From the IMG/VR virus record IMGVR_UViG_3300009360_000004: 42,338 nucleotides of DNA, one strand, 5' to 3'. Origin of the DNA: a virus. Shown here in pieces: positions 6,774 to 34,131 of the stretch. The translations under genes and the position numbers were made by a program. Below the pieces are notes generated by a model that saw only the letters and a list, made by a program, of their open reading frames with translations, was not told where the DNA came from and searched no databases. Positions within the stretch are counted from its first letter, which is position 1. Every line of letters starts with the position of its first letter.

Positions 6774-7018
6774 AATACCGGGTACGTGACTGGTATGACT
6801 GGGACAGATTCGAGTACGAAGAGGAGTATGTCCCTGAAGCTCTGAAAGTGATGCTCTGCATACAGAAGTTTGGCCTCACGCTCGAGGAGTGGAGAGACCT
6901 GAAACGAGAGGACCAGCTGGTCTATCTCTACGGAATGACGGGAATCTCGATGCTCGAAAGGCGCGAAGCGGAGAGGGCAAAACAGGCAAGCCAGAATAGA
7001 GGGAGCGTTCTTGATTGA
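6752..7018 (+). other. Putative -1 programmed frameshift site (T TTT TTG) and gpT-like extension ORF
   Basis: Slippery heptamer at 6752-6758 in the zero frame of the chaperone; the -1 frame has no stop from 6737 to TGA 7016-7018 and no good start of its own; classic G/GT arrangement before a tape measure gene. Confidence 0.45.
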
Positions 7019-7036
7019 GCGCTCCTTTCTTTTGGA

Positions 7037-10000
7037 GTGATGACTATGGCTTTCGAAGGACTGAATTTTGATGTTGGCCTGAACTCGAGGCCGTTCACAG
7101 ACGGAATCAAGACGATGCAGACTCAGGCTGCCTCGTTTGATAATACAATCAAGAATATTGGCAGAACGCTTATGGGAGTCTTCGGGACCGTCTCTGTCGT
7201 CGCCACACTGAAGAAGTCTATCGAGTTGTGGGGCGAGCAGGAGCAAGCGATGATGAAACTCTCCATCGCCGCGCAGAGGTTCACGAGAGACGCGCAGGGT
7301 ACATACGACAGGGTCACAAAACTGTCGGGCAATCTCCAGCACCTCACGGGCATAGGGAACGAGACGTACCAATCCGTCGCGGCTCTGGGCCTCTCGCTCG
7401 GAATCACGGAGGAGAAGATCGAGAACGCCACGACCGCGGCGGCCCTCCTCTCGCAGGTGACGGGGATGGATCTGAACAGCGCCATGAAGAACCTGGCAAA
7501 GACTCAGGCGGGATTGACGGGTGAACTTGGAGAAGCTCTCCCGTTTCTCAGAGAACTGACGCAAGAACAATTGAAGAGTGGTGCAGCAATCGACCTCGTG
7601 ATTCAGAAGTATGACGGCTTTGCCGAGCAGCTTTCAGGCACAACGCAGGTGGCGATGAAGAGATTCTGGTCCGCGCTTGGAGATGTCGGGGAGGTCCTGG
7701 GCAAGTCGTTCAACCCCTTGATTCAAAAAGCCGCTGACTGGATGGAAGGCTTCAGCTCGAAGATCGAGAAACCGACCGACATTCTCAAGACACTAAAAGA
7801 CACGATCAAGGCAGGATACGAAGAACTCGGGCCGTTCGGCAAGGCTGTTGTAGGTGTAGGTGCTGCGTTCCTGACGCTCAAGGTTGCTGGCACTGCATGG
7901 AGCTTGCTCTCACAGATAGTTGTGGCTGGTGGTCATCTGATTGTAGGCGTGTTCAAGACGATATTCTCGTGGCCCACACTCTTAATTGCTGGTTTGTACA
8001 CCCTTCGTGTTGCATGGGATCACGACTGGTTCGGGATTCAGGGGACGGTTGAACACGTTTGGAAAGTGATTGAGCCTATATTTATAAAACTCAAAGACGG
8101 TCTCGTCTCAGCCTCCACATGGGCTATATCTCTGGTTTGGGAAGGCGTGAAGTGGGCTGGAGAAAAGATAGCCGTCACATACGAAACTATCAAAGACTGG
8201 GTGCTCGAAGAGCTTGCACTTGGGAAGTCCCCGCTTGAGATCGTCGTTGATGCCGCAAAGATTGCGGGCGGTGTTGTCTGGGATGGTCTTACATGGGTAG
8301 GAGAAAAAATCGCGCTAGGTACGCAAATAGTCTTTGACTGGGTAAAATCTCAATTTGGAGATGAAATAGAGGTTGTAATCAATGCAGCTAAAGTCTTCGG
8401 TGGTATGGTTTGGAAAGGGCTCAAATGGGCCGGAGAGAAAGCAATAGTTACTGCACAGATGATTTATGATTTTGCTCTTAAATATGTACCGCTTGGTATT
8501 GAGACTGTTATCAACGTTGCATCAGTGTTTGGTTCGGTGATTTGGTCCGGCTTAAAATGGATAGGTGAAAAAGCAGTTAATCTTGCGGTTCTTATCAAAG
8601 ACTTTGCAGAAAGTGAAATAGATACAGGCTTTGAACAAACAATACAGATTGCAAAAGTCTTCGGCTCTATCATATGGTCTGGTCTCAAGTGGGTTGGAGA
8701 AAAGATAGTTCTCGGTATCAAAGTGATAGAAGGTTGGGTGAGAGATCAACTTGATCTCCCAGAAACCGCAACGCTCCCTGAAATCTTCCTTGATATGGTC
8801 AGAGTAGTTGGCACGGCAGCGTGGGATGGCTTGAAATGGGTAGGCCAGAAGGTTGCTATTGGTGCCAAAGAAGTCTATGATTGGGCTTCCGAAGGGCTAG
8901 AAACAGGCTTTGAACTCACAATCGAAGTTGCTAAACTGTTTGGCGGGGTAGCCTGGCAAGGGTTGGTAAAACTCGGTGAATGGTCATATGATGTTGCTGT
9001 GTGGGCTAAGGACAATGTCCTCCCTGCTGTGATTGAGACTACGGTTGAAGTTGGAAAGGTAATCGGTGGCGTTAGCTGGCTAGGTCTCAAATGGGTAGGT
9101 TCACAGATTGCGATAGGTTTTGACACTCTCAGAAACTGGGTCTATTCGGAGCTTGGCCTTGACAAGTATGGAGCGACATCAAATATCCTGATCGAAGTTG
9201 CCAAAGTCTTCGGAGGTCTAGGCTGGCTCGGTTTGAAATGGACCGGAGAAACGATAATTCTCGGATACGAAGCGCTCAAGAAGTGGACTGAAGAGCAGCT
9301 AGGCACCACACCGGTTGACATCATTCTCAATGTTGCGAAAGTAACAGGCACGGCAATCTGGGAAGGTGTGAAGTGGATAGACGACAAACTCCCAAAGATT
9401 GATCTCGGTGCTGACGATGAACAGAAAGTAGATCAGGGCATCGTGGATGTAGTTGTGAGTGCGATAGCTAACATTGCATCGTGGCAGTGGAGGGGCTTTG
9501 TCTGGCTCACTGAGAAGGCTTCATTCGGGCTCGACTGGCTCGCAGATCAGATCCGACCGAAAATAAATGTTGAAGTAAACGGAGACGATAACTCGGGTTT
9601 TGATATTGGAGATATAGGAGTATTCGCAAAGGGAGTCGCGAAGGTATTCTCAATGAAGTGGGAAGCCGTCAAGTGGCTCTGGACGAAAGTCACACAGAGC
9701 ACTTTCATTGAGGACCTGAAAAACAGAATAAAGAAATCATCGGGCATAGATGATGAGGTCGAAGTCACCTGGAAAGACTTGTTAGTCCGGGGCTTCGGCT
9801 CTATTGGCTCTGCCGCGTGGGATGGTCTTACATGGTTTGCGGAAGGTCCGGTACATACATTTGCCGACTGGGTACGAAAGCAGATCGGTATGAGCGAAGC
9901 CGGAGAGATGAAAGTAAACCTCGGGGATGACATTAAAGTGATCCTCTCGGGTGCAGTCTCTGGTGCGACTTGGCTAGTTGATTGGGTCAAACAAGGGATA

Positions 10001-12346
10001 GGGGCCGCAACCGAATGGCTTCAAGATGTAGGAGCAGTCCTTCGTAGGGCTGTGGAAGGCGTAGAAATGAGCGCAGAGGATATAAAACTCTATGAAACCA
10101 CGGCTTCGTTTGGCGTAAAATTGGGTGAGTTCATAGGTGCTGGAATCAAAGCGGGCCTCAATCTTCTTGACATAATTCAGAGTGCGCTTGCTGGAGTAAT
10201 TGCAGAAATGACAGGCTCAAAAGAAGTTGGCCAAGTTGCTGGGACTGCAATTCCTTTGTTTTTCACTGCAAAGTGGCTCATGACTCCAATTGCTACACTT
10301 ACCCCATTTCTTGTTGCTGCAATGGGTTTCGCGGGATTGAAGCCTCTCACTTTCGGGACGTTCGGTGTGATGGTTGCGTTAAAAGTTGCGCAGGATCTTT
10401 CAACAGGCGAGGCCGAGTGGCAGGACATAGGGGCAAGGTTCGTTGCCGCCCTTGCCGTGGGTATGGGGATAGGAGCGTTTCTCGGCAGTCCGAGCGCGGG
10501 GGTGCTGACATTCGAGCTTCTCATGCTCGTCAAAGTTGAAAAGTTTGTTGACAGCATAGGAAATGTTGTGAAAGATCTTGTGGACGCTGTCCTGTTCCCT
10601 GAATTCGTCGATCTTCCTGTATCTGAGAAGATGGAGAAGACTATCGGCGCACTTGAAAAGCTCGATCAGACTCTTGACAGACCCGCAGACAATCTTGCAA
10701 CGTGGCTCATCACTGTGGATGAAGCACTCGGAAATTTTTACAATACATTCCCGACGAAAGTCGAACTCAATCAGATGGGCGAACTTGAACAGAGCTACTA
10801 TATGGCCGTGCTCGAATATGCTCATGCCCTTGAGGCGTCATCAAATGCGATACTCGATGCAGCAGATGATCTTGCAGCAACGGCTCAAATGATCGAGAAC
10901 ATGAGACAGATAGTTGTGCCGATACCTGGGAAAGCAGAAGGCGGTTACATCTCAGGCCCGGGCGGTCCTAAAGAGGATAGAATACCCGCCCTACTCTCGA
11001 ACGGTGAGTTCGTAGTCAATGCGAAGTCAACCGAAAAGTGGCTACCGTTCTTGAAAGCAATCAATGCTCAAGGCTTTGCAGACGGTGGAATAGCTCGGTT
11101 TGCCACAGGCACGGCAACGAAGATAGACGTTGGCAGTATTGGTGGTGGTCCGCTCACATGGTGGGATACAATTCTAAACACCCTTATGAGTGTGGTCGGA
11201 GACTATGCCGAGACCGCAAAGAAAGACTTCGGGATGATTAAGAACGTACTCGGAGACTTGCTCAGAACAATAGGTCTTGACATCGACGCGCCGCTAGACA
11301 ATCTGAACAAACTGCAAAGTGAGCTTGACGGTCTGACTCTTTCTACGAGCGATACAGGTGATACAGTAGAAGACTTCATGACCGCCATGTTCAGGGGATA
11401 TCGCAAAATCAATCAAATCTCTGAGGTTCTCAGTGAAGGCAAGATAGAGAACGTCAATAGACAGCTTGCGTTCCTTGATACTGCGATGAACGATCTTGAA
11501 AAACAGTTCATGGAAGGAACCATCCAGCTCGGAGAGTACACGGAAAGAATGACATATCTCAAGAATTTGACAGACAGTTTCTCTGACTCTCTCGGAGACC
11601 TCAAGAAGAAGATTGAACGCAGCTCGATAGTCGGTGACTCATCCGAGATATTCAAGGTTGACGAGAACACCGGCGAGCTGGTCTCTGTATTTGCAAAACT
11701 GAGGCCGGGCATGGAAGGACTCACAGATGTTGTGGGCAATTTAGCCACAGCGGGTGAAATGTTTGCCATGAGTCTGTTGAATCAGGTCGTGAACCTCGAA
11801 GCTATCAACATGCTCCTGAATCCGATCTCAACGATTCTCACAGGTGTGATGGAGATACTAGGTCCGATCATCAACCTCTTGAAACCTCTCGGCGACGCGC
11901 TGGTCAGCATAGGCAGAGTCTTCGCCCTGACGTTCAATCTCTTCGGTCAGGGCCTCCTGGTTCTCCAACCGTTCTTCAAGGCTCTAGGCTGGCTCGGTGC
12001 TACGATCTCGTATATCGCGGACCAGATAGTCCTGTTCGTCGATGGAATTTTCACCTGGTTAAGCACTCTGCCGTTCATAGGTGGTCTGTTCAGTCCTCTC
12101 CTAACAGAGGATCAGAGGCAGAGCATGAAGCGCACCATCCCGGAGAGGATGGAAGATATCGAGCTTCCACAGTCCACGACAGGGCAGGTCTTCCAGGCAG
12201 GGAGTTCCCAGCACATCACGAACAACTACCACTTCGAGTTCAGGGGAAACGACATTCTCACAGAAGACGACGAAAGCGCCCGACGGTTCGCAGATCTCAT
12301 CTACAAGAACCTTCGCGATCGCGGCGTTCAGTTGCAGGTAGGGTGA
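7037..12346 (+). CDS. Tail tape measure protein
   Basis: 1769 aa ORF (ATG at 7040 or 7046 more likely than GTG 7037); largest gene, after the chaperone pair; N-terminal coiled coil, hydrophobic central segments, at least ten tandem ~45 aa repeats carrying W-x-G-L-K-W-x-G-E-K. Confidence 0.85.
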   Translation: MMTMAFEGLNFDVGLNSRPFTDGIKTMQTQAASFDNTIKNIGRTLMGVFGTVSVVATLKKSIELWGEQEQAMMKLSIAAQRFTRDAQGTYDRVTKLSGNLQHLTGIGNETYQSVAALGLSLGITEEKIENATTAAALLSQVTGMDLNSAMKNLAKTQAGLTGELGEALPFLRELTQEQLKSGAAIDLVIQKYDGFAEQLSGTTQVAMKRFWSALGDVGEVLGKSFNPLIQKAADWMEGFSSKIEKPTDILKTLKDTIKAGYEELGPFGKAVVGVGAAFLTLKVAGTAWSLLSQIVVAGGHLIVGVFKTIFSWPTLLIAGLYTLRVAWDHDWFGIQGTVEHVWKVIEPIFIKLKDGLVSASTWAISLVWEGVKWAGEKIAVTYETIKDWVLEELALGKSPLEIVVDAAKIAGGVVWDGLTWVGEKIALGTQIVFDWVKSQFGDEIEVVINAAKVFGGMVWKGLKWAGEKAIVTAQMIYDFALKYVPLGIETVINVASVFGSVIWSGLKWIGEKAVNLAVLIKDFAESEIDTGFEQTIQIAKVFGSIIWSGLKWVGEKIVLGIKVIEGWVRDQLDLPETATLPEIFLDMVRVVGTAAWDGLKWVGQKVAIGAKEVYDWASEGLETGFELTIEVAKLFGGVAWQGLVKLGEWSYDVAVWAKDNVLPAVIETTVEVGKVIGGVSWLGLKWVGSQIAIGFDTLRNWVYSELGLDKYGATSNILIEVAKVFGGLGWLGLKWTGETIILGYEALKKWTEEQLGTTPVDIILNVAKVTGTAIWEGVKWIDDKLPKIDLGADDEQKVDQGIVDVVVSAIANIASWQWRGFVWLTEKASFGLDWLADQIRPKINVEVNGDDNSGFDIGDIGVFAKGVAKVFSMKWEAVKWLWTKVTQSTFIEDLKNRIKKSSGIDDEVEVTWKDLLVRGFGSIGSAAWDGLTWFAEGPVHTFADWVRKQIGMSEAGEMKVNLGDDIKVILSGAVSGATWLVDWVKQGIGAATEWLQDVGAVLRRAVEGVEMSAEDIKLYETTASFGVKLGEFIGAGIKAGLNLLDIIQSALAGVIAEMTGSKEVGQVAGTAIPLFFTAKWLMTPIATLTPFLVAAMGFAGLKPLTFGTFGVMVALKVAQDLSTGEAEWQDIGARFVAALAVGMGIGAFLGSPSAGVLTFELLMLVKVEKFVDSIGNVVKDLVDAVLFPEFVDLPVSEKMEKTIGALEKLDQTLDRPADNLATWLITVDEALGNFYNTFPTKVELNQMGELEQSYYMAVLEYAHALEASSNAILDAADDLAATAQMIENMRQIVVPIPGKAEGGYISGPGGPKEDRIPALLSNGEFVVNAKSTEKWLPFLKAINAQGFADGGIARFATGTATKIDVGSIGGGPLTWWDTILNTLMSVVGDYAETAKKDFGMIKNVLGDLLRTIGLDIDAPLDNLNKLQSELDGLTLSTSDTGDTVEDFMTAMFRGYRKINQISEVLSEGKIENVNRQLAFLDTAMNDLEKQFMEGTIQLGEYTERMTYLKNLTDSFSDSLGDLKKKIERSSIVGDSSEIFKVDENTGELVSVFAKLRPGMEGLTDVVGNLATAGEMFAMSLLNQVVNLEAINMLLNPISTILTGVMEILGPIINLLKPLGDALVSIGRVFALTFNLFGQGLLVLQPFFKALGWLGATISYIADQIVLFVDGIFTWLSTLPFIGGLFSPLLTEDQRQSMKRTIPERMEDIELPQSTTGQVFQAGSSQHITNNYHFEFRGNDILTEDDESARRFADLIYKNLRDRGVQLQVG

Positions 12347-12350
12347 TAGT

Positions 12351-12698
12351 ATGACAGTTGACATAGGATCTCTCAGTTTCACGGTGTACCCGAAGAAATA
12401 CAAGCACCCATACAGAACCAGAGTGATCGAGCCGGTGGAGGTCATAAACATTGCGCCCGACGGTTCGGCATATCACTATTGTGACGGCACGGTGAAGAGA
12501 TACAAAATACCTCTCTTCTTCACCGAGTCGGACAGAACCACGCTGGAATCATACAGGCAGACCGCGGCGACTTTGAAGATAGACTCGGAGTCTGCCGTGA
12601 ATGTGAAACTGATCGGGAACTACGAGTACAAAGAAAAGTGGATCAAAGGCGTGGCAATGTACGAAGAAACGCTTGAGTTCCTGGAGGTGGCCACATGA
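12351..12698 (+). CDS. Hypothetical tail protein (distal tail protein position)
   Basis: 115 aa ORF directly after the tape measure gene, overlapping the next gene by 4 nt. Confidence 0.4.
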   Translation: MTVDIGSLSFTVYPKKYKHPYRTRVIEPVEVINIAPDGSAYHYCDGTVKRYKIPLFFTESDRTTLESYRQTAATLKIDSESAVNVKLIGNYEYKEKWIKGVAMYEETLEFLEVAT

Positions 12699-15586
12699 GT
12701 TTTCAGGTCAACCTCAATAGTGTGGACATATCGGCCCGGATAGTCTCCGGGCCGGTTGTTCATAAGAACGACGTCCTTCACGGTCGGATCTCTCCGAACG
12801 AGTGCAGCTTCGATATAGACAACACGAATCTTGCCTATACCATCTCGAACCTCGACATTGAAGGCCAGCTCGTGGAAGTGTGGGTAGATTCAACGAAACA
12901 GTTTACAGGCTACGCAGAAAAGCCGACTCTCACGAGAAATGGTCGAACAGTCACAATCAAAGCGTTCGACAAGATGAAGCAGCTTCAGAAGCTCAAGTGC
13001 GACGACAAGATGTTCATCGGATCGACCGCGGACGACATTCTGACGTGGCTCGTGGAGACTTGCGGAGGCATAGGTTCGGGCAGTCATAGCCTCGACAGCA
13101 TACTCGTTGCGACCTCCGGCGGCACGACTCAGGCGGTCGTGGGGTACGCGTTGTATTCGGTCAAAGACAAACTCACGGATAGGCTTCAGGAGATCGTCGA
13201 TTCGTGCGGCGGGTCTATGTGGTTCGACGAGTCGGGGGTCCTCCAATTTCGGGCAGGATTCGCGGCCACCTGGTCAACGTCCACAGTCGGCACGATCACA
13301 GTCTCGAAACTGAAAGACATAGACTCTCTTCAATGGTTGCCGAGCGAGGGCGATCGAGTCATTGTCAAATCGAAGAACCGCAGTGTCAAGACCGAGAAAG
13401 AGCCCGTCTTCACCTGGTCCGGCGTGGTCACAAGTGACGGACTGCCGACCGGCAAGGACGAGAACGGCAACGCTATCACCGACGACCAGTGGCGCGCGAA
13501 GTTCGACTCTCCGGCCATTGAGATAGATGACTACGCAACCGTTGACGCGGCCAAAGAATTCGACTCCGGGCTGACACTCAATCAGACCGTGTACGACGCG
13601 AACTTCGACTCCGGCGTTCTGAAGTACCCGGACTTCATGTATCTCCAGATAGACAACAGCTCGGGCGTTGACAAGAACGTCACGAAGCTGGTTATCGAGG
13701 GGAAGCCGGTCGTGGAGAACTATCTGGAAGTGATTCACGACGCGGGTAGTTTCAACACGGAGAGGGAGGTCTCGAACGATCTGATCTCCTCGAAGGTCTG
13801 GGCTTCGTCTCTGGCGAAGTGGTTGTACGAAAACGGCAACGACAAGTTCGAAGCAGTCGTGCCGCTCGCGGACTTCTCACTTGGCTTGAGCTGGAGCGTC
13901 GGAGACAAGGTTAACATCGTCGATGCTTCGACGGGTCTTTCACACAGAGCGTGGGTCAGGGCGATAGACATAGACTACCGCAACAGGGATCTGACGGTCA
14001 CGCTCAGGAGCGACAGAGCCTCCGGGTTCGAGTACACGGCGCCTCCAGGTTCGATCACCGGTCCGGGAACGAATATACCCTACGAACCACAGTTCGGTGA
14101 CGGTTCGGCTCCGGCAACTCCTACGGGGCTCGCTCTCACGGCCTTCGCGGTCAAGAATAGAAGCTATGTCAAGGCCACGTGGGACGCGAACACCGAGGAG
14201 GACCTGATCGGGTACGAGGTGCAATGGAACTACGACAATGGTGCAACTTGGTACAACGCCGGGTTCGTGAACAACAACGAGCTGGTGATCGAGGTCACAA
14301 ATCAGTGGGTGTCGGGGACTTCATACACTGTTTACGTTCAGGTCAGGGCTGTGGATATCGAGAATCTTCGTTCCGACTGGTCGACTTCTGACAGCGAGAC
14401 TATTCTCTACGACACCACGGCACCGGCAATCCCCGGGAGCATCTCGGCGGTCGGTGGAGTCGGTTTGATTCACGTCGATTGGTCGCAGGTGTATGACTCG
14501 GACGTGGAGCAATACTATCTTTATCGAAAGGTTCAGACCTCGGACGGCGGCGCTTTCAGTGCAAATTGGACGTTCCTTGCCGCCGTGAAAGGCACTGACT
14601 TCGTAGACAAAGACGTCGAGTATCATATAACAGACTCGGACGACCCGAACTATCCGCAATGGCGAAAATATATCTACGCCGTCAGGGCGACCGATTATGC
14701 GAATAATGCTTCTGATCGCAGGGAAATGTCAACTGCAAACGCTGTCTATGCGACTCAAGCCACGGGCGATGACATAGCCGTAAACTCAATCACGGCAAAC
14801 CACATCAATGTGGCTCTGGATCTTTCGGTCGGTCGTCAGATAAAGGTCGGTTCTCAGATACAGATAGGAGCTGACGTTGGCCCTGTCGGCGATACGTTCG
14901 ACGGAATCTACGTAACAGACGGCACGAACTACGTCAGGCTCTCTGCCGATGAGGTCAAAATCAAAGGCGATTTAGTTATTGGCGCAGGAGACAACGTTAT
15001 AGAGTTCGAGGACTCGAACATCTCCCTGGGGGACACCACGACGGAAGTGGCAGGAAACCTGACGAGGTACTATCTTCAGTTCAAAGCCCTGACAGGGTGG
15101 GGGAGCGACCCTGACCGTCAGGTGTTGGCTGTCGGGTACGCCCTGAACACTACCGACGACGAGTACCATTCGTATCTGGAACTTCAGAATCGTTTCGACA
15201 ACTACTCGAATATGGCGAGATTTAACATCTATGCTAAGACCGGCTCGAATCTTTCCAGTGGTGCGCACGTCCAGCTAGGTTTCTACGCATACAACAATTC
15301 GGGGGCCAATCTTGCCGGAGGGATTCTCTCGTTCATCCGTGAGGCCGAGGCCTCTTCTAAAGGCTGGTTCTATACCGACTCGGCATTGGAGCAGGTTATC
15401 CCGTACTGGTATGGGACGAGCGGTTCGCCCACGGCTAAACTCCCGTCTTTCAGCACTTGGACGGACGCTGAAGATTGCCCGGCATCGAACATCTGGATAT
15501 GGAGAAATTCGGGGGATAGCAAATACTATCTCTATATTCGAGATGTGAATGGAGATGTTCTGAAATGTGAAATGACTTTGACATAG
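12695..15586 (+). CDS. Tail fibre / host-recognition protein with fibronectin type III-like repeats
   Basis: 963 aa; repeated beta-rich segments with the W...Y...V.A.D motif pattern of FN3 domains (e.g. KATWDANTEEDLIGYEVQWNYDNG...YTVYVQVRAVD); position after tape measure protein. Confidence 0.6.
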   Translation: MSFQVNLNSVDISARIVSGPVVHKNDVLHGRISPNECSFDIDNTNLAYTISNLDIEGQLVEVWVDSTKQFTGYAEKPTLTRNGRTVTIKAFDKMKQLQKLKCDDKMFIGSTADDILTWLVETCGGIGSGSHSLDSILVATSGGTTQAVVGYALYSVKDKLTDRLQEIVDSCGGSMWFDESGVLQFRAGFAATWSTSTVGTITVSKLKDIDSLQWLPSEGDRVIVKSKNRSVKTEKEPVFTWSGVVTSDGLPTGKDENGNAITDDQWRAKFDSPAIEIDDYATVDAAKEFDSGLTLNQTVYDANFDSGVLKYPDFMYLQIDNSSGVDKNVTKLVIEGKPVVENYLEVIHDAGSFNTEREVSNDLISSKVWASSLAKWLYENGNDKFEAVVPLADFSLGLSWSVGDKVNIVDASTGLSHRAWVRAIDIDYRNRDLTVTLRSDRASGFEYTAPPGSITGPGTNIPYEPQFGDGSAPATPTGLALTAFAVKNRSYVKATWDANTEEDLIGYEVQWNYDNGATWYNAGFVNNNELVIEVTNQWVSGTSYTVYVQVRAVDIENLRSDWSTSDSETILYDTTAPAIPGSISAVGGVGLIHVDWSQVYDSDVEQYYLYRKVQTSDGGAFSANWTFLAAVKGTDFVDKDVEYHITDSDDPNYPQWRKYIYAVRATDYANNASDRREMSTANAVYATQATGDDIAVNSITANHINVALDLSVGRQIKVGSQIQIGADVGPVGDTFDGIYVTDGTNYVRLSADEVKIKGDLVIGAGDNVIEFEDSNISLGDTTTEVAGNLTRYYLQFKALTGWGSDPDRQVLAVGYALNTTDDEYHSYLELQNRFDNYSNMARFNIYAKTGSNLSSGAHVQLGFYAYNNSGANLAGGILSFIREAEASSKGWFYTDSALEQVIPYWYGTSGSPTAKLPSFSTWTDAEDCPASNIWIWRNSGDSKYYLYIRDVNGDVLKCEMTLT

Positions 15587-15597
15587 GAGGGAATAGT

Positions 15598-15771
15598 TTG
15601 AACGACCTGAAGAGAAACTATGAGAACTTTAAGATGGCTCTAGTGGGAACAATGAATCTTGGCCTTGAGACTCTGGACAGAATGATTGCAAAAGCGGTCA
15701 CGGAGAACCAGGCGAAAGACCAGAGGATCAAGGAACTGGAAGCGAGAATCAAAGAGCTAGAGCAAAAGTAG
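15598..15771 (+). CDS. Small coiled-coil protein (XkdX-like position after the tail fibre)
   Basis: 57-codon ORF from TTG 15598, 5 nt after aggaggg RBS; too short for the ORF track; ends at TAG 15769-15771. Confidence 0.4.
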   Translation: MNDLKRNYENFKMALVGTMNLGLETLDRMIAKAVTENQAKDQRIKELEARIKELEQK

Positions 15772-15780
15772 ATATACGAA

Positions 15781-15812
15781 GAGGCCACCTGCCGGGGCGG
15801 CCTCTTCTCTTT
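15781..15812 (+). terminator. Rho-independent terminator after the tail genes
   Basis: gaggcc...ggcctc hairpin followed by ttctcttt. Confidence 0.5.
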
Positions 15813-15823
15813 GGAGGTACATC

Positions 15824-16249
15824 ATGGAGAGCTTGTACCACAACCCTATTTTAACAGTCTTTCTTTCCTTGCTGGCAATTATCATAATCGGCAACTCCGG
15901 GCTCCAACTCTATATGTTGAACGCTCCACCAGTCGTGATTGAGAAAGAGTTCGCCCATAACGGTGCCGCCGGTTGTCTTCACTGGGCGTTGCCTATCATC
16001 TATATCAACCCTACCGACCCTCCCACGACGAGCAGGGTACTCAGACACGAATATCAACACTATATGCAGAAAGCGATTCTCTCTCCGCTTGTTTTCAACA
16101 TAGCTTACTGTCTCGAAGACGCGTTGCACGGCTACGACGGCAACTGGTTCGAGCTTGACGCATACAGGGCGGAAGGTGATGGATTGGAGTTCAAGGTGTT
16201 CGGCTGGAACTTGAAAGGAATGATGGAGGTGAGACCGTGGACAAAGTAG
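15824..16249 (+). CDS. Membrane-anchored protein with HExxH motif (putative zinc metallopeptidase)
   Basis: 141 aa; N-terminal hydrophobic helix (ILTVFLSLLAIIIIG) and HEYQH motif; RBS tggaggt before ATG. Confidence 0.45.
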   Translation: MESLYHNPILTVFLSLLAIIIIGNSGLQLYMLNAPPVVIEKEFAHNGAAGCLHWALPIIYINPTDPPTTSRVLRHEYQHYMQKAILSPLVFNIAYCLEDALHGYDGNWFELDAYRAEGDGLEFKVFGWNLKGMMEVRPWTK

Positions 16250-16464
16250 TGCATGCAGGATTCGGATTCTTCTTCGCGCTCATATTTGGATTCATAATGC
16301 GCAACGCATGGCTTGGGTTCGCGATAGCTGTTCTAGCCGGGGCCACGAAAGAGGTTGTCTGGGACTGGTGGCTCAAGAAAGGGACGCCTGAGCTGTTAGA
16401 CTTCGTGGCGACACTCATCGGCGCGGCTCTAGGGTTTGCTATGCTGTTGCTCGTGCGCTTCTAG
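16237..16464 (+). CDS. Small multi-pass membrane protein (holin candidate)
   Basis: 75 aa, GTG start after ggaggt RBS; two to three hydrophobic helices (FGFFFALIFGFIM, LGFAIAVLAGA, FVATLIGAALGFAMLLLV). Confidence 0.45.
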   Translation: MDKVVHAGFGFFFALIFGFIMRNAWLGFAIAVLAGATKEVVWDWWLKKGTPELLDFVATLIGAALGFAMLLLVRF

Positions 16465-16474
16465 GGAGGTTGAT

Positions 16475-17599
16475 ATGAACAATCAATCGTGGACGGAATA
16501 CGAAGAAAAGAAAGCTGTCGAACTGCGAAACCGCGGGCTCACGTACCCGGAGATCGCGGCCGAGTTCCAGAAAGACGAACTTTGCCAGCCCAGGACCTCG
16601 GAGAGCATACGGCTCAGGACCTATGCCCTGACGGGGAAGACGCGTATCAAACCGAAACACAAAGAAAAACCAGCCTCAAAACCCACGGAAGAACCAGCCT
16701 CGAAGATCATCGACATACTCAAGCAACGCCGGGTAGCCACGCTGACCGAGCTGGCCGACGAGCTGGACACTTCTCCCCGTCGCACGAAAGAGGGCGTGCA
16801 GTCTCTCATCGCCGAGGGGAAGCGGCTGGAGCTGAAAGGCGAGACTGTGGAATTCATGGCCCCGAAAGGCGGAAAGACGACGACCTTGAAATCCGAGGAC
16901 GACGGCTGGTGCCGGTTCGGGCTGGTGTCGGACACGCATCTCGGTTCGAAGAAACAACAGATATCCGCGCTCAGGGACTTCTATCGTGAACTGAAGGCGC
17001 GCGGCATCACGAAGGCTTTCCACTCGGGCGACTGGGTGGCCGGGAAAAACATCTATCGTGGGCAGGAATACGAGCTTTTCTTGCACAGCATGAGAGAGCA
17101 GAAAGAGTATTTGATCCAGGAATACCCGGACGAGGGGATCGAGACAATCGGGATAGTGGGAAACCACGACTTTGCCTGGTCCGCGCTCGCGGGAGATTCG
17201 ATACTCGAAATGGCCGCGATGGTCCGCCCCGATATCAAGATCGTGGGTGAGTACCAGGCATTCGTCGAATGGAACGGCTTCAGGTTCTCGCTGCACCATC
17301 CAGACGGTGGGCAAGCATACGCGATCAGTTACAAACTTCAGAAACTCGTGGAGTCTTTCACAGCCGAGAACCTCCCCGACTTCGTGGTGATGGGCCACTT
17401 CCACCAAAAGGAATACGTGACCATCCGCGGTGTCGAGTGTTTCCAGCCAGGTTGCTTCGAGGCGCAGTCGCCGTACTTGATACGAAAGAACCTCCACCCA
17501 GCTATTGGAGGCTGGATTGTGGAGGCTCAGCGAAAAGAAAACCGCACACATATCATAGCAGAGTTTCTCAGTTATAAACCACTTGAACGGGACTGGTGA
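16475..17599 (+). CDS. HTH domain fused to calcineurin-like metallophosphoesterase
   Basis: 374 aa from ATG 16475 (RBS gggaggt). N-terminal HTH-like segments (LTYPEIAAEF; ATLTELADEL); C-terminal MPP motifs GLVSDTHLG, HSGDWVAG, GIVGNHDF, GHFHQ. Confidence 0.6.
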   Translation: MNNQSWTEYEEKKAVELRNRGLTYPEIAAEFQKDELCQPRTSESIRLRTYALTGKTRIKPKHKEKPASKPTEEPASKIIDILKQRRVATLTELADELDTSPRRTKEGVQSLIAEGKRLELKGETVEFMAPKGGKTTTLKSEDDGWCRFGLVSDTHLGSKKQQISALRDFYRELKARGITKAFHSGDWVAGKNIYRGQEYELFLHSMREQKEYLIQEYPDEGIETIGIVGNHDFAWSALAGDSILEMAAMVRPDIKIVGEYQAFVEWNGFRFSLHHPDGGQAYAISYKLQKLVESFTAENLPDFVVMGHFHQKEYVTIRGVECFQPGCFEAQSPYLIRKNLHPAIGGWIVEAQRKENRTHIIAEFLSYKPLERDW

Positions 17600-17886
17600 T
17601 AGACATGGCCGATGAATGCAAATATGCACACGATATTGAGCGAATGAAAACCGATACAACTGTTCTGTTGACAAAAATGGATGATGTTCAAAAGGATGTA
17701 GACAAGCTCGGCAATAAGATAGACAAACTCTCGGATGACTTGCATAACGGCCTAGTTGAAGAAAAGGTAGAAAAGGCCATAGATGCGAGAAACGGTAGAC
17801 TGCTGATGAAAATAATCTTTGCCGTAGTCAGCTCCACTTTCGGATTTGAGCTCGTTGCAAAATGGTTAAGCGGGTTGTTCAAATGA
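17596..17886 (+). CDS. Coiled-coil protein with C-terminal transmembrane helix (holin/spanin-like candidate)
   Basis: 96 aa ORF (GTG 17596 or ATG 17605); C-terminal hydrophobic segment IIFAVVSSTFGFELVAKWL. Confidence 0.4.
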   Translation: MIDMADECKYAHDIERMKTDTTVLLTKMDDVQKDVDKLGNKIDKLSDDLHNGLVEEKVEKAIDARNGRLLMKIIFAVVSSTFGFELVAKWLSGLFK

Positions 17887-17955
17887 AGTTTTTTCGTAGT
17901 TCTGCTCATAACTTTCCTAGCAGCTCAAGTTTCAACAATGGAGGTTGATACTCCA

Positions 17956-18420
17956 ATGGGCATAAAACTCGACTTCATCGAGAAGTACCGCAGCGACGCT
18001 ATTCTCGTCGGGCTGGCCTGTGACTTTCCTCCGATCATTCTTCTCGTGCAGGCCGCGCTCGAGACAGGCTGGGGGAGGCATATGGTCGGGAACAATCTGT
18101 TCGGTATCAAGGACGTTCCCTGGATTCCCGGGAGTGTGGAAAAAGAAACGACTGAATTTGATACTGTATGGAAAACTGAGACACACAGCTTTGAAACGTT
18201 CGACTCTCCTATCCAGTGCATGGTTGCGTATGTAGTAAAAATACGTACAGAACCAAGATATAGTACAGCCTGGAAATTCAGACATGAACCCACAACGTAC
18301 TTCGAAGAACTCCAGAAAGCAGGCTATGCCACAGATCCAGACTACGCTAAAAAACTTGTACGCATTTTTGATACATTCCCCGAATGGGAGGTGGATGATG
18401 CCAGCACCCAAAACGATTAA
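17956..18420 (+). CDS. Endolysin, glucosaminidase (N-acetylglucosaminidase-like) domain
   Basis: ATG 17956 preceded by ggaggt RBS (track ORF starts at 17938); motif VQAALETGWGRHMVGNNLFGIK typical of the glucosaminidase/FlgJ-type lysozyme family. Confidence 0.65.
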   Translation: MGIKLDFIEKYRSDAILVGLACDFPPIILLVQAALETGWGRHMVGNNLFGIKDVPWIPGSVEKETTEFDTVWKTETHSFETFDSPIQCMVAYVVKIRTEPRYSTAWKFRHEPTTYFEELQKAGYATDPDYAKKLVRIFDTFPEWEVDDASTQND

Positions 18421-18736
18421 GCTCGGAGCTTTCGAGTGGGGAGTCATGTTCAACGAAATCACGCAGGAGTGCGCCGAAGAATTCGACAACGAACCCCAGA
18501 ACGTTCTGGGATTCACGGACAGAAGAAACCTGGTCATGTACATCGACAAAACGCTCACACCGCAGGTGTTGAAGAGCACCTTCTTGCACGAGCTGGTCCA
18601 CGCGATGGGCGACTCGTTTGGACTCGGTTTCGAGGATACCGAGAATGAGGGTGCCGTCAACAAAATCGCGAATGCTTTCTACAACTTCATCAAACAAAAT
18701 CCAAAAGCCGTTGAGTGGCTGATAAAGGAGGAATAG
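18395..18736 (+). CDS. Small HExxH protein (putative zinc metallopeptidase)
   Basis: 113 aa from ATG 18395 (RBS gggaggtgg), overlapping the endolysin 3-prime end; motif FLHELVHAMGDSFGLGFED. Confidence 0.45.
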   Translation: MMPAPKTIKLGAFEWGVMFNEITQECAEEFDNEPQNVLGFTDRRNLVMYIDKTLTPQVLKSTFLHELVHAMGDSFGLGFEDTENEGAVNKIANAFYNFIKQNPKAVEWLIKEE

Positions 18737-18738
18737 AC

Positions 18739-19035
18739 GTGTTTGAAAAGATTCTAAATATCCTGAAACAGGGTGCCAAGTTTCTGAAAGATTCGGGCCT
18801 GGACATCACGGAAATAAAGGAGATAGTGAAAAAGAAGATAGAAGAGCTGGTCGAAAAGGCGATCGACTTCAAGATCGACTTTCTCGAATATCTGCTTGAG
18901 AGAATCATTATCATAGCGGTGAACATCGCGATCGACAGGTTCGTCGACGAGATCTTCGAGAACGACGAGAAAGCCGCAGCTCTTCCAGTTGATGCTCCCG
19001 AAGCCGAGATAGCCAAAGCCATATTCACAAAGTAG
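18739..19035 (+). CDS. Hypothetical protein
   Basis: 98 aa from GTG 18739, 8 nt after aaaggagg RBS; the GTG at 18715 lies inside the upstream gene. Confidence 0.4.
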   Translation: MFEKILNILKQGAKFLKDSGLDITEIKEIVKKKIEELVEKAIDFKIDFLEYLLERIIIIAVNIAIDRFVDEIFENDEKAAALPVDAPEAEIAKAIFTK

Positions 19036-19060
19036 TTACCCCTCCCGTGTTCTGGCACCG

Positions 19061-19090
19061 CGCCCCCTGGCGAAAGCTGGGGGGCTTTTC
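19061..19090 (+). terminator. Rho-independent terminator with GAAA tetraloop
   Basis: gccccctggc-gaaa-gctggggggc hairpin (about 10 bp stem) followed by ttttctt. Confidence 0.65.
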
Positions 19091-19204
19091 TTGTTGCTTA
19101 TCATATGTATAGATTCGTTACTTATACTTTACTCTACTTTTATTGTAGATAGCATTATATCATGATATACTTTAGTTAAGGAAGCACAAAGAGGAGGGGT
19201 AGAG

Positions 19205-19480
19205 ATGAAAGAGAGAAGAGATGTAGAAGAAATTCTGAAGGCTGGCGAACACGTTGGAGATTACGGAGTCCACTACGAATATAACCCAAAGGTTGAAGAA
19301 GTTGAAGAGAGTGTCTATGACTGGATTGAAAACAAAGGAAGCATCATGTTTCTCGACAGAGAGAAAATCGATTTTCTCAAGAACAGCAACGACAAGTCCA
19401 TAGCCGACGAAATTAACAAGAGAACCAACAACGGCGAAAACATTGGAACGGTTATTGCAGAGATTATGGAGAGGGCCTGA
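19205..19480 (+). CDS. Hypothetical protein (AT-rich island)
   Basis: 91 aa ORF, RBS gaggagggg before ATG; first gene after an AT-rich promoter-like region. Confidence 0.45.
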   Translation: MKERRDVEEILKAGEHVGDYGVHYEYNPKVEEVEESVYDWIENKGSIMFLDREKIDFLKNSNDKSIADEINKRTNNGENIGTVIAEIMERA

Positions 19481-19482
19481 AA

Positions 19483-19890
19483 ATGGCCCAGCTCCTTTTC
19501 AGAACTTCGGATGAACTAGCGAAAGAATACAAGGTATGGTTGGCAAAGAACGAAAGAACGATGAAAGAGCATCTGGAAGAGATAATACTGGCGGAGGTAT
19601 GGAAGATGAGATTCAACGAGAGAGCAAAGGAGGAACTGTTAGACAAAGTTATCTACGAAGGCGAAATCGAAGTCATTGAAAATCTGAAGGTTGAGCCGTG
19701 GTTTCAGGGAAGATTTAAGGAGGCTCCAAACGCTCCGGAAAGGTATTCTTTGTTTCAGGAAATAACCAAAAGAGGCATTGCCAAGCTTTGGGAAAAGGAA
19801 GAGTTCCCAGCGAAGGGTTCGTTCGTTCTTGAAGTTATTCACGAAATCAGCATTAATAACAGAGAGTTCAGACTGTTCTTTGTGGAATAG
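19483..19890 (+). CDS. Hypothetical protein, possible ribbon-helix-helix-like N-terminus
   Basis: 135 aa ORF; N-terminus LLFRTSDELAKEYKVWLAKNERTMKEHLEEIIL loosely resembles Arc/CopG-type RHH segments. Confidence 0.35.
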   Translation: MAQLLFRTSDELAKEYKVWLAKNERTMKEHLEEIILAEVWKMRFNERAKEELLDKVIYEGEIEVIENLKVEPWFQGRFKEAPNAPERYSLFQEITKRGIAKLWEKEEFPAKGSFVLEVIHEISINNREFRLFFVE

Positions 19891-19953
19891 CAACAGCTCA
19901 AATTGCTAGCCTCCCCGAAGGGAGGCTCCACAGAAAACAAAGGGGGAGTAGAA

Positions 19954-20229
19954 ATGACAAAGAGAGAACTGATTTCCATTGTTAGAAAAGAAAGAGAGAA
20001 CTGGGACAACTGCGATCTTGAACCCGCTATCGTGGCGGCACTTGACAGAGACAACTTGTGGGATGCTGCTAGAAAGCTGATCCCTGACGAGTGGCTCGCC
20101 GAAAACGGCGATCTGAACAGGGAAGAAGTGGAGAAAATGGTAGAAACCTACGGTGACGAAAACAGTTTCGATCGCTGGGCAGTCATCCTGTGGCTTTTCT
20201 CGGAGTTTGGCGAAGAGTACGACGCTTAA
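19954..20229 (+). CDS. Hypothetical acidic protein
   Basis: ATG 19954 after aaagggggag RBS (track ORF starts at 19903); ends convergent with the minus-strand gene. Confidence 0.4.
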   Translation: MTKRELISIVRKERENWDNCDLEPAIVAALDRDNLWDAARKLIPDEWLAENGDLNREEVEKMVETYGDENSFDRWAVILWLFSEFGEEYDA

Positions 20230-20849
20230 TCAGTTTCAGAATCATCGGGCGGCTTCGGTCGCCCTTTTATTTTTTCCTGGTAGTATTTTTTGTGATAGCC
20301 AGGGTTCTTTTCTTTGAATTGTTTCTGATACTCCCGGAATTTCTCTTTGTTCTCCCGATAATATTCTCTCATATACTGCCGACGCGCTTCGAGAAACGCT
20401 TCCGGGTTTTCGGCTTTTTTCTTTTGCGCCCAGCGAACGGCGAAGTACCCATGTATCGCGTTGTAGAGTTCAGGATTCTCAGCTCTCAATTTTCTGTCGC
20501 GCTTTCTGGTTCTCGCCTGTTCTTGTTCTCTATGCTCTGCATACCATCTCCGCCCACTCGCACGTTTTCGCTCAGCTCTGCAATCTTCGCACAGCCAGAT
20601 ACGAAAATATTTTGACATTTCAGAGACGTGGAGAATTTTTCCGCAATCTACACAGGCCCCATAGTCAGGTACTTCGCGTTTTTTTCTATGCTTTGCACGC
20701 CATTTGCGCGCGCTGACTCGGTTGCGCTCGGCCCGGCAGTCCTTGCATATCCAGATGCGAAATTGTTTCGGCATTTCGGAGACGTGGAGATTTTTTCCAC
20801 AGTCCATACAGGTTCCATATTCTTGCGTTTCTCGTTTTTTCTTGGCCAT
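20226..20849 (-). CDS. Tandem zinc-ribbon protein with basic C-terminal region (putative regulator)
   Basis: 207 aa, the only convincing minus-strand gene; two ~48 aa copies of YG.C.DCGK.LHVSEM.K.FRIW.C.DCRAER (C-x2-C...C-x2-C); TATAAT-type hexamer 6 nt upstream of the ATG and no Shine-Dalgarno. Confidence 0.6.
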   Translation of the reverse strand: MAKKKRETQEYGTCMDCGKNLHVSEMPKQFRIWICKDCRAERNRVSARKWRAKHRKKREVPDYGACVDCGKILHVSEMSKYFRIWLCEDCRAERKRASGRRWYAEHREQEQARTRKRDRKLRAENPELYNAIHGYFAVRWAQKKKAENPEAFLEARRQYMREYYRENKEKFREYQKQFKEKNPGYHKKYYQEKIKGRPKPPDDSETD

Positions 20850-21443
20850 AGAAAGATTATAGCAGCATCTCTGGCTTCGATAGAAGTAAGAAGATCACCC
20901 CCCAGGATCGCTCAGGTTGCATTTTTCTGTGTGCGGGTATGTATTTGTACCATGCGCCGGAGATCTTTCAACCTGGGGCGTTTTGCGAGGTCACCGGATT
21001 TTGGGAGTCGGTACAGCTTTCGACTGGCCGTCCCGTGGGGCTGCCAGTCTCAAAACCCCGGTTCTTAAATCATAGTCGAAAATAGTCACTTTTTGCCAAG
21101 TTGTGCCAAATTGTTAGAAATCTATGCGCAACTATACGAAACTAGGCGCAATCAGGCGAAACATATAGAAAGAAGTGTATAATCGCGCCTATTTGTGCAT
21201 AGTTGTCTGCAATTAACTTTGCATTACTTGACGCAACTGACTAGAATTGACTTGTAACGATCTTTGACATACACATATCAGGTTCGGGCGCATCCAAAAG
21301 GACGAGCGAGGACGAGGTTCCCTAGCGACTGATGTGTGACTATAAGTACCAAAAGGACGCTGAATCAAGGGTATCCCGCTTTTTTTATTGTGGGGCGCTT
21401 GATTGAGCGCCTTTTTTTATATCAATCGAAAGGAGTGATAAAC
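20850..21443. promoter_or_regulatory. Divergent regulatory region between the minus-strand regulator and the + strand early genes
   Basis: ~590 bp without a convincing ORF; TTGAC-type hexamers (21228-21269), TGTATAAT at 21176-21183, direct repeats ttgccaag / tgccaaattg and gcgcaa; the ORF-track reading frames here lack RBS. Confidence 0.5.
21394..21418 (+). terminator. Rho-independent terminator or attenuator upstream of the 21444 gene
   Basis: ggcgcttgattgagcgcc hairpin followed by seven T. Confidence 0.5.
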
Positions 21444-21632
21444 GTGGAAAGCACCGTGTTAGTCAGCGCCAGGGCGTTTGCGAAAAAGAACGGGATTGAC
21501 CCATGTGTGTTGAACGGCTTGATAAACCAGTACAAGATTAAGCCCGACGCACGATACGGCAAAGCCCGGCTCTTCAGGCCCGAACGCCTTCAGGGCATCG
21601 TCGATAATCTTGAAACCGTAATGAAAAGATAA
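21444..21632 (+). CDS. Small hypothetical protein (possible DNA-binding)
   Basis: 62 aa from GTG 21444, 5 nt after aaaggagtga RBS; the longer track ORF from 21336 spans the terminator hairpin. Confidence 0.4.
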   Translation: MESTVLVSARAFAKKNGIDPCVLNGLINQYKIKPDARYGKARLFRPERLQGIVDNLETVMKR

Positions 21633-21840
21633 CCCGACCTGCGAAACACCTCCTTGTGTTGAGTACCAACCCCCTTTCCGTCGGCAGCTTGAGACCCTGT
21701 CGGCGGTTTTTGAAACGAGTTTCGAAAGATAGCACCAAAAACTCAAGAAAGGAGGACCTCCTAAACCTATGTTCGGGCGCTGGAATGTGTCCGGCGCTCA
21801 ATTTTTGAAGTGAGAAAGCGAGATAGAAAGGAGGGGAAAG

Positions 21841-22140
21841 ATGAAAAGTATTGAAGTGAAGTTCGGAATTGGTGACATTGTATGCCCGACTCTTAATGCG
21901 GAGTTCGGCAAGATTGACAGAATGGCGGTGGAGCAAATCGAAATCAAGAAAGGGAGAAGGCGCTACCAAACAGACAACGGAGATTATTACCGTGAAGAGC
22001 AATTGGTTTCTGAAGCTGAGGCGTTCGACCTTGCCATTGCATACCACAAGCGGCAAGCCGAAATGCTCATCGAGGCAGCAACAGAAAAGCTGTGCCGGGT
22101 AGCAGAAGTAGAAGAACTCGTCCAGCAAGCAGAAGACTGA
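21841..22140 (+). CDS. Hypothetical protein
   Basis: 99 aa ORF with ggagggg RBS. Confidence 0.45.
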   Translation: MKSIEVKFGIGDIVCPTLNAEFGKIDRMAVEQIEIKKGRRRYQTDNGDYYREEQLVSEAEAFDLAIAYHKRQAEMLIEAATEKLCRVAEVEELVQQAED

Positions 22141-24734: not shown

Positions 24735-25166
24735 ATGAATATGACGAAAGTCAAGCAGTATGTGAACCTGCACGCGAAAAAGACGAAGCTCGAAGCCGAG
24801 CTCGCGAGTGTCAAGGAAAAGCTGAGCGAACTCGAGCCGTTCGTGCTCGAGCAATTTGAGAAGGCGGGGATTCAGAACATGAAGGTCGGAGACTGGAAGC
24901 CTTATGTCCACAGCCAGATCTGGGCCTCGGTCGACAAGAGCAATCCCCGGGCAATGGAGATCCTGAAAGCCAACGGGCTGGCAGACCTCGTGAGCGAGAC
25001 CGTGAACAGTCAAAGCCTCTCAGCCTACGTGCGCGAGCAGGTCAGGCTCTATGAAGACGCCGATTCGAAGAGCCTCGAAGAAGTATTGAAGGAAGCTATT
25101 TCACAGGAATTGCTAGAAGTGTTGAAAGTATCCGAGAAAACCAGCCTACGGGTTGTAAAGGCATAG
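24735..25166 (+). CDS. Hypothetical coiled-coil protein (replication/recombination module)
   Basis: 143 aa, RBS aaggagg; coiled-coil N-terminus. Confidence 0.45.
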   Translation: MNMTKVKQYVNLHAKKTKLEAELASVKEKLSELEPFVLEQFEKAGIQNMKVGDWKPYVHSQIWASVDKSNPRAMEILKANGLADLVSETVNSQSLSAYVREQVRLYEDADSKSLEEVLKEAISQELLEVLKVSEKTSLRVVKA

Positions 25167-29696: not shown

Positions 29697-29987
29697 ATGA
29701 GCGAAAAGTCGATAGTTAACTCGATACTGAAGTACCTGAACTCTCTTCCACAGTGCAGGGCCGAGAAGACCTGGGGCGGCGGGTACGGGAACGCAGGGAA
29801 ACCCGATATCACAGGGTGCCTGAGCGGGCGGCGCTTCGAGCTGGAGGTCAAGGTCCCCGGGGGTAAACTGACCCCGCTTCAAAAAGTCACGCTCGAGCAG
29901 TGGAAAGAGGCGGGCGCGATTGTGGCTGTGGTTCACAGTGTCGAAGAAGTGAAGGAGATATTGAAGGAGGCAAAATGCGAGAAATGA
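29697..29987 (+). CDS. VRR-NUC domain nuclease
   Basis: 96 aa from ATG 29697 (RBS taggagg); GKPDITG...ELEVKVPGGKLTPLQK matches the PD-(D/E)xK VRR-NUC pattern. Confidence 0.6.
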   Translation: MSEKSIVNSILKYLNSLPQCRAEKTWGGGYGNAGKPDITGCLSGRRFELEVKVPGGKLTPLQKVTLEQWKEAGAIVAVVHSVEEVKEILKEAKCEK

Positions 29988-34066: not shown

Positions 34067-34131
34067 TGTAAACTCACACGGCTTTAATCCCGTGAAATAA
34101 GGCTCAGTAACTTACTAGAGGGAGGGTGCGA

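Follow-up and report, generated by a model that had tools for sequence, protein, structure and literature searches.

A 42,338-nucleotide virus genome (IMG/VR record IMGVR_UViG_3300009360_000004; this whole stretch of DNA is referred to as the window) encodes, at the end of its late operon, a small HExxH protein whose gene overlaps the 3′ end of the gene for a GH73 endolysin (the pair spans positions 17956 to 18736). The small protein is predicted to be a stand-alone minimal zincin. It is a new member of a catalogued, uncharacterised phage family, PHROG 1233, it is translated separately from the lysin, and it is probably the product of an accessory gene and not a part of the lysin. Across the family, a calcineurin-like phosphoesterase is found beside the zincin far more consistently than lysis enzymes are. 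On balance, we favor the view that the zincin is a soluble accessory intracellular protease, placed at the end of the late operon, that would work with the phosphoesterase on a protein substrate.

A separately translated minimal zincin

The original prediction, made from the sequence of the window, described a 113-residue open reading frame (ORF) with the motif FLHELVHAMGD that starts 26 nt before the lysin stop codon and encodes a protein distinct from the lysin. This ORF is present, running from an ATG at 18395 with the motif at residues 63 to 73. We take the next ATG, at 18398, as the start because homologues begin there (MNRPKTIKLG...) and because a Shine-Dalgarno-like GGGAGG lies 6 nt upstream of it. 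In six close relatives (L001-L006), an in-frame TAG directly precedes the zincin ATG and GGGAGG is found seven bases upstream of that ATG, which bears out the separateness of the two proteins. A lysin–zincin fusion produced by frameshifting was also considered and is excluded by the TAG in these relatives. The simplest reading of the arrangement is that translation of the zincin would be coupled to that of the lysin. By itself, an HExxH motif is weak evidence for a protease, as five occurrences can be found in a six-frame translation of the window; the small protein is judged to be real because the motif is conserved and sits in a zincin fold.

A word-indexed search with the zincin recovered only three close clusters, and a HMMER search with an alignment of these three extended the family to 533 cluster representatives (50% identity) at E ≤ 1e-3, nearly all of them stand-alone proteins of 95 to 130 residues. 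In an alignment of 136 to 138 homologues, H64, E65, and H68 are invariant; G38, E84, and N101 are conserved in at least 90% of sequences (E84 in 134 of 138), and P102 and T61 are also frequent. An AlphaFold2 model of the zincin, built with the family alignment, has a mean pLDDT of 92.7 and consists of four strands followed by three helices, of which the first long one carries HELVH; E84 is found where the second begins. The HExxH helix packs against the β-sheet as in zincin metallopeptidases of clan MA, and a fold search with the model returned zincins only. The lack of a peptidase fold, together with no effect on lysis or peptidoglycan, had been named as grounds for abandoning the original prediction; the confident model instead indicates a genuine zincin fold, in a protein from an abundant phage family that is named by no curated model.

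A profile search, which the original prediction had proposed, places the protein in PHROG 1233 (function unknown; E 1.8e-19 over residues 2 to 111), and our own family HMM matches it at E 1.9e-37. Pfam M78 (PF06114; 17.9 bits) and DUF6782 (17.1 bits) fall below their respective cut-offs of 22 and 27, and NCBIfam and PADLOC contain no family for it. Among 136 members, matches at E < 0.01 were obtained to DUF6782 in 49, to M78 in 42, and to SprT-like in 30. When the family profile was compared with the PDB, IrrE (3dte) was matched at E 1.2e-4 over a strand and the HExxH helix, and a PDB sequence search with a profile of close relatives gave nothing meaningful. On these matches, the protein is best placed as a minimal zincin between the M78 and SprT families, with a predicted ligand pattern of the Glu rather than the His type. 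No known peptidoglycan-peptidase family appeared among the fold or profile matches. Searches of GenBank phages by tblastn, with the zincin and a distant member as queries, gave only weak matches, to Streptococcus prophages, one Lacticaseibacillus phage, and Ralstonia phages. A search of the literature on DUF6782, small phage HExxH proteases, lysin–metallopeptidase pairs, and phage phosphoesterases found no study of the small-zincin family.

Two further observations concern the wider family. Tandem-duplicated versions of the zincin occur (P0046, P0047, P0074, P0088, and P0110); in P0046, P0074, and P0110, one copy lacks HExxH, and in P0088, the second His is lost in both copies. These sequences suggest a dimeric unit and possibly noncatalytic members that act by binding. 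The zincin profile also gives marginal matches (E 0.02 to 0.04) to PDB entries 11fw_A, 11go_A, 11gp_A, and 9pnr_A, which are giant virion-packaged phage RNA polymerases of 2493 to 3500 aa; the segment matched is internal (...GWTNFDDKTIYLVSPSMETLIHELVHAS...) and hints at a related zincin-like module within an ejected protein.

Genomic neighborhoods of the zincin family

An initial set of ~20 loci came from relatives both close and distant. IMG/VR was then sampled with the back-translated pattern T-[LF]-[LF]-H-E-x-x-H-A, which yields an arbitrary rather than a random sample; among the matches listed, 96 of 120 stretches encode a family member. The sampled and earlier loci were reduced to 86 non-redundant clusters at ~70% identity (L007-L148), and the context counts below refer to these.

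The family is found in many settings, most often in packaging and head modules or in regions of DNA metabolism. A terminase, portal, MuF, or scaffold gene is found within 3 kb of the zincin at 16 loci or more; the usual slots in these packaging and head modules are between MuF and scaffold or just before the terminase. Further loci sit among DNA-metabolism genes. One zincin is located between a tail chaperone and a tape measure, another lies two genes away from an Acb2/Tad1-hairpin gene in a cluster of early accessory genes, and in Streptococcus prophages, the family member is the first gene facing a CI-like repressor. Pfam censuses of neighboring genes reveal many functions and no dominant neighbor, whether among the two genes upstream of the zincin (highest counts: Phage_lysozyme 4, Metallophos 4, 5′-3′ exonuclease 3, and terminase 3) or among the two downstream (terminase 6, scaffold 3, and portal 3).

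Pairing with a GH73 lysin is confined to one clade. Here, a block of four genes, encoding an XhlA-like protein, the GH73 lysin, the zincin, and a 98-aa protein, is common to the window, L001-L006, and L011, the last of which has 54% identity to the window in the lysin and 68% in the zincin. A prophage of Kosmotoga pacifica (CP011232.1, 141831-156934; L151) is syntenic with positions 7000 to 18400 of the window, from the tape measure and tail protein through the XhlA-like gene; it encodes homologues of a 75-aa membrane protein (TM75; E 6e-13), of the phosphoesterase (E 2e-153), and of the XhlA-like protein (E 4e-6). Beyond the XhlA-like gene, an SLT lysin takes the place of GH73, and where the window has the zincin and 98-aa genes, the prophage encodes a protein of 108 aa with hydrophobic stretches. 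Host genes then begin, with no zincin before them; the zincin is thus dispensable to that cassette. The suggestion of a two-polypeptide lysin, in which a glycosidase would be paired with a peptidase, fares poorly against these contexts: the family is not specific to lysis, the GH73 pairing belongs to a single clade, the syntenic prophage does without a zincin, and the zincin matches include no known family of peptidoglycan peptidases.

A more regular association is seen with phosphoesterases, which were detected by iterated searches seeded with those seen beside zincins. They are present at 21 of the 86 loci, always within 2.4 kb of the zincin, on the same strand in 20 cases and adjacent to or overlapping the zincin in 9 (examples are L022:4323-5381, L135:3283-4465, and L071:387-1372). 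None was found more than 2.5 kb from a zincin, though 434 of the 786 kb of fetched DNA (55%) lies there. The linked zincins fall into ~11 sub-lineages, and by our own calculation from the share of fetched DNA, the chance of all ~11 lying within 2.5 kb is ~1e-4. Three PHROG families account for the linked enzymes: phrog_221 is annotated as ‘metallo-phosphoesterase’, and phrog_704 and phrog_7339 as ‘DNA repair exonuclease’. A Thermosipho contig with a homologue of the phosphoesterase has no zincin. The linkage is unexpected and modestly interesting, and it ties together, in a form that experiments can address, two ‘hypothetical enzyme’ genes that are among the commonest in phages.

Lysis enzymes also recur around the linked pair. 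Within four genes on each side of the 21 linked loci, there are eight peptidoglycan hydrolases (Glucosaminidase 3, Phage_lysozyme 3, GH108 1, and SLT 1), along with Thy1, 5′-3′ exonuclease, endonuclease I, DNA polymerase A, ribonucleotide reductase, and ERF. Searches were also seeded with GH73, GH24, and an ORF of L020 that reads like an M15 peptidase (a family assigned by reading only); a hydrolase of these types lies within 3 kb of the zincin at six loci, all six of them phosphoesterase-linked, and at none of the 65 loci that lack this linkage. In L135 and L106, the gene order is holin-like, lysozyme, small membrane protein, zincin, and phosphoesterase; in L140, it is phosphoesterase, 100-aa protein, lysozyme, membrane protein, and zincin. 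This recurrence of zincin, phosphoesterase, and lysin with differing lysin types is the main reason that a lysis-related role keeps some weight.

What the zincin may do

In the reading that we favor, the GH73 lysin, which has no signal sequence, would be produced in the cytoplasm and would rely on membrane lesions produced by neighboring membrane proteins. The zincin would be made as its own polypeptide, coupled to translation of the lysin via the ribosome-binding site in the lysin 3′ end, and would act as a soluble minimal zinc endopeptidase of the IrrE/ImmA–SprT superfamily, with HExxH followed 16 residues later by a Glu. It most likely cuts an intracellular protein late in infection, not peptidoglycan, and may be regarded as a mobile accessory gene that has settled here, at the end of the late operon. 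As the phosphoesterase is its most regular neighbor, the likeliest job would be a proteolytic step together with that phosphoesterase or nuclease, such as the removal or inactivation of a regulatory protein or of one bound to DNA. Knowledge of the substrate would annotate thousands of phage genes.

Several points weigh against this account. Activity and substrate are putative throughout the family, and degenerate HExxH motifs in some members mean that the function may not always be catalytic. E84 is a candidate rather than an established third zinc ligand. Peptidoglycan hydrolases of several types (GH73, GH24 lysozyme, GH108, SLT, and an M15-like ORF) recur near loci with both a zincin and a phosphoesterase, and within the window's clade, the block from the XhlA-like gene to the 98-aa gene has been inherited as a unit across a mosaic breakpoint. 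Finally, the arbitrary character of the IMG/VR sample applies to all of the context counts.

Other explanations must be weighed against the same evidence. If the zincin were a peptidoglycan peptidase or an obligatory subunit of the lysin, translational coupling could hold the two chains at a fixed ratio. The gene overlap with its internal Shine-Dalgarno site would fit, as would a lysin without a wall-binding domain, the retention of the pair in a relative as distant as L011, the inheritance of the block as a unit, and the members in L135, L106, L140, and L020 that come directly after cassettes with different lysins. We nevertheless consider this highly unlikely, as most family members are far from any lysin, the Kosmotoga prophage has no zincin, and the fold and profile matches lead to no peptidoglycan-peptidase family. 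In L135 and L106, moreover, the zincin follows an already complete set of holin-like protein, lysozyme, and small membrane protein and abuts the phosphoesterase, and lysins without a wall-binding domain are normal where the host has an outer envelope. In another idea, the zincin would cut the protein anchors of the toga in a Thermotogota host as a third lysis step in place of spanins. The probable Thermotogota host, the position of the zincin directly after the lysin, and a cassette in which ORF reading, Pfam, and PHROG revealed no spanin-like gene are consistent with it. However, the zincin carries no signal sequence, the Kosmotoga prophage manages without it, and members of the family are found in head or packaging modules and in phages whose envelope targets differ greatly; we would be most surprised if this explanation proved right. 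A broader possibility is a conserved two-enzyme phage module, made up of the small zincin together with the DP1/Mre11-like phosphoesterase, that has been set into the lysis cassettes of several unrelated lineages, beside varied lysins, and acts at lysis. We hold this to be rather improbable. If true, the module might clear DNA-bound or envelope-anchoring proteins and nucleic acid for virion escape or, in Thermotogota, help in breaching the proteinaceous toga, and it would represent a previously unrecognized class of lysis accessory factor.

Roles away from lysis can be weighed in the same manner. The original prediction also raised a metalloprotease regulator of the ImmA/IrrE type, which would cleave or sequester an XRE-type repressor or another transcription factor and so switch a phage or host program. 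XRE repressors are established cleavage substrates of IrrE and ImmA, and for Rir a mode of action that involves no cleavage is known (PMC6868357). Part of this idea stands, in that the best sequence relationship of the zincin is to IrrE and PF06114, so that its nearest characterized relatives belong to M78; the member facing a CI-like repressor in Streptococcus prophages also fits. Membership does not stand: the PF06114 score is under the cut-off, the protein is much shorter than ImmA, and no XRE gene lies next to that of the zincin; among the window ORFs scanned, the single HTH_3 gene, at 29900-30253, is 11 kb away. Judged by sequence, the resemblance is real only at the level of the superfamily. 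No integrase was seen among the ORFs scanned, the end of a late operon is an odd place for a switch, and most family contexts have no neighboring repressor, all of which make such a regulator distinctly unlikely. A protease for counter-defense or host takeover, which would destroy a host immunity or housekeeping protein as the protease domain of ArdC does, would suit the floating, moron-like distribution of the gene between modules and the member found two genes from an Acb2/Tad1-hairpin gene. Yet no PADLOC or anti-defense family is matched, placement in a late operon is too late for first-line defenses unless the protein is packaged, and the structural similarity is generic to zincins; we regard this role as unlikely. 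An intracellular protease working beside the phosphoesterase is the reading that we retain.

The lysin and the late operon

The original prediction described the lysin as a protein of ~154 aa with one glucosaminidase domain and no wall-binding domain, and this description holds. Pfam Glucosaminidase (PF01832) matches at E 5.8e-25 (88.8 bits; cut-off, 30.2 bits) over residues 27 to 146 of the 160 counted from the alternative start, which leaves no room for a second domain. Endolysin families in PHROG match as well (best E 4e-31), and the best NCBIfam similarity, to the FlgJ C-terminal domain, is below the model cut-off. The translation contains QAALETGWG and GYATDPDYAKKL, which we take to be the GH73 catalytic-Glu motif and the YATD motif, and it has no N-terminal hydrophobic segment. 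The lysin itself is known biology, an ordinary globular endolysin. Endolysins without a wall-binding domain are normal in hosts with an outer envelope, and with a probable Thermotogota host, the lack of one here is unremarkable.

Downstream of the tail genes, a run of plus-strand ORFs that overlap or abut extends from 15824 to 19035 (Table 1). As is typical of phage lysis cassettes, small membrane proteins are encoded on either side of the lysin where the late operon ends. The XhlA-like protein, which is probably a lysis accessory protein or a holin, has weak matches to haemolysin XhlA families (phrog_1193, E 0.0016; PF10779, E 0.76), and its gene also precedes that of the lysin in L001-L004, L011, and the Kosmotoga prophage. 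Homologues of the 75-aa holin candidate are found in L002, L011, and the same prophage. With a gene that resembles DNA exonucleases in its middle, this cassette is a caution that position in a lysis cassette may be a poor guide to function. The last gene of the operon encodes the 98-aa protein, which is called at the same length in L001 and L002 and is conserved alongside the zincin only inside the window's clade; comparisons with Pfam, PHROG, NCBIfam, and PADLOC gave no match to it, and no homology was found between it and the downstream neighbors of distant zincins. A strong terminator-like hairpin follows and coincides with the mosaic breakpoint, beyond which the gene content differs between L001/L002 and L003-L006. 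The first ORF of the run encodes a second HExxH protein, of 141 aa, which has a homologue at the same position in L011 and no match in Pfam, PHROG, NCBIfam, or PADLOC; comparison with the family HMM ruled it out as a member of the small-zincin family.

Table 1 Features of the late operon and other features of the window
Feature	Position	Strand	Description
Second HExxH protein, 141 aa	15824-16249	+	N-terminal hydrophobic segment; RHEYQHYMQ (HExxHxxQ)
TM75, 75-aa holin candidate	16237-16464	+	Three hydrophobic segments; phrog_35767, E 3.9e-6
wHTH plus calcineurin-like phosphoesterase	16469-17599	+	Resembles PolD-DP1/Mre11 exonucleases; longest ORF from TTG 16436
XhlA-like coiled-coil protein, 96 aa	17596-17886	+	C-terminal membrane helix
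GH73 (FlgJ-like) N-acetylglucosaminidase endolysin	17956-18420	+	Single domain, 154 aa; 160 aa from alternative start ATG 17938
Shine-Dalgarno-like GGGAGG	18386-18391	+	Inside lysin 3′ end; serves the zincin start
Stand-alone minimal zincin, 112 aa (predicted)	18398-18736	+	HELVH at residues 64-68; E84 candidate third ligand; 23-nt overlap with lysin
98-aa helical protein	18739-19035	+	Last operon gene; GTG 18739 start preceded by AAGGAGG
Intrinsic-terminator-like hairpin	19062-19095	+	10-bp stem with 8 G-C pairs, then a T run; ends late/lysis operon
Large terminase	36470-37684		
Glycosyltransferase-like gene	5168-6253		phrog_13126; amid structural genes
207-aa protein	20226-20849	−	Two internal repeats of zinc-ribbon-like C-x2-C...C-x2-C motif
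Pam3 gp33-like DUF7307 protein	24735-25166		Accessory
MazG pyrophosphohydrolase	31751-32257		Accessory
RyR-domain protein	34126-34518		Accessory
ParB-N/N6-N4 DNA methylase fusion	34989-36155		Accessory
wHTH, winged helix-turn-helix.

The genome and its host

The window reads as a complete siphovirus-like genome of ~42 kb. The part that was compared matches an IMG/VR contig at 100% identity, and its proteins are also encoded on a contig of 42,430 bp. In addition to the large terminase, its head and packaging genes include those for an SPP1-type portal, a MuF-like protein, a scaffold protein, and a capsid protein, and its tail genes include those for a 1769-aa tape-measure protein and a 963-aa tail protein; SNF2 and UvrD helicases are also encoded. 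No DNA similarity to GenBank phages was found for positions 15000 to 22000. Close homologues of the phosphoesterase occur in Kosmotoga pacifica (59% identity, several copies) and in a Thermosipho metagenome-assembled genome (MAG), the syntenic prophage of K. pacifica also points to a Thermotogota host, and members of the portal cluster have been binned to Thermotogota, Synergistaceae, and Syntrophorhabdaceae MAGs, though such binning of short contigs is unreliable. From these similarities, the host is probably a member of the Thermotogota. Several accessory genes found elsewhere in the window are included in Table 1. Among the other features, the 207-aa minus-strand protein has weak HNH-like PHROG matches and is kept in L003-L006.

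Comparison with known systems

The window lysin resembles the FlgJ-type GH73 glucosaminidases, as its PF01832 match and its NCBIfam similarity indicate, but it stands alone in a phage cassette, without the rod-binding N-terminal half of FlgJ. In lysins of the PlyC and 2638A types, the second chain either serves as a wall-binding subunit or is an isoform encoded by the same gene, whereas the second protein in the window is an unrelated zincin from a family that is mostly not found beside lysins. Such two-gene or multimeric endolysins, for example PlyC of streptococcal phage C1 and the isoform heteromers of phage 2638A (PMC12203907), divide a lysin over more than one polypeptide at one locus. 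A phage-derived metzincin/TIMP-like pair has been described in Listeria, where an HExxH protease of phage origin is reported to affect the sensitivity of the wall to lysins and is followed by a small partner gene (PMC8235301). That metzincin is secreted and its partner is a lipoprotein inhibitor; the window zincin has no signal peptide, and the protein downstream of it is soluble and uncharacterized.

Comparisons can also be made with other small or intracellular zincins. The minigluzincins (selecase, proabylysin, and projannalysin) are archaeal and not phage-borne, and their sequence similarity to the zincin is not significant; the zincin family has a distinct N-terminal β-hairpin and an N-P motif. 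SprT, Spartan, and Wss1, like the protease domain of ArdC, have a third His after HExxH, which the window zincin does not (its residues 69 to 80 are AMGDSFGLGFED). It also lacks the zinc ribbon or DNA-binding tail of SprT, Spartan, and Wss1, and SprT-like (PF10263) gave no match to it at E ≤ 1. IrrE/PprI and ImmA (M78, COG2856) differ from the window zincin in several respects, as the latter is only 112 aa long, has no GAF or extra domains and no adjacent XRE partner, and belongs to a family that typically neighbors phosphoesterases or packaging genes. With a Glu 16 residues after the second His, its ligand spacing presumably differs from that of IrrE as well. IrrE and ImmA are themselves often carried on mobile elements and phages (PMC6868357). 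They have the zincin fold and a Glu as candidate third ligand, as is predicted for the window zincin; its segment G-x-x-D...I-x-I...(Q/R)-x-T-L-x-HE-x-x-HA aligns with IrrE, and IrrE and ImmA are intracellular, as the window zincin would be.

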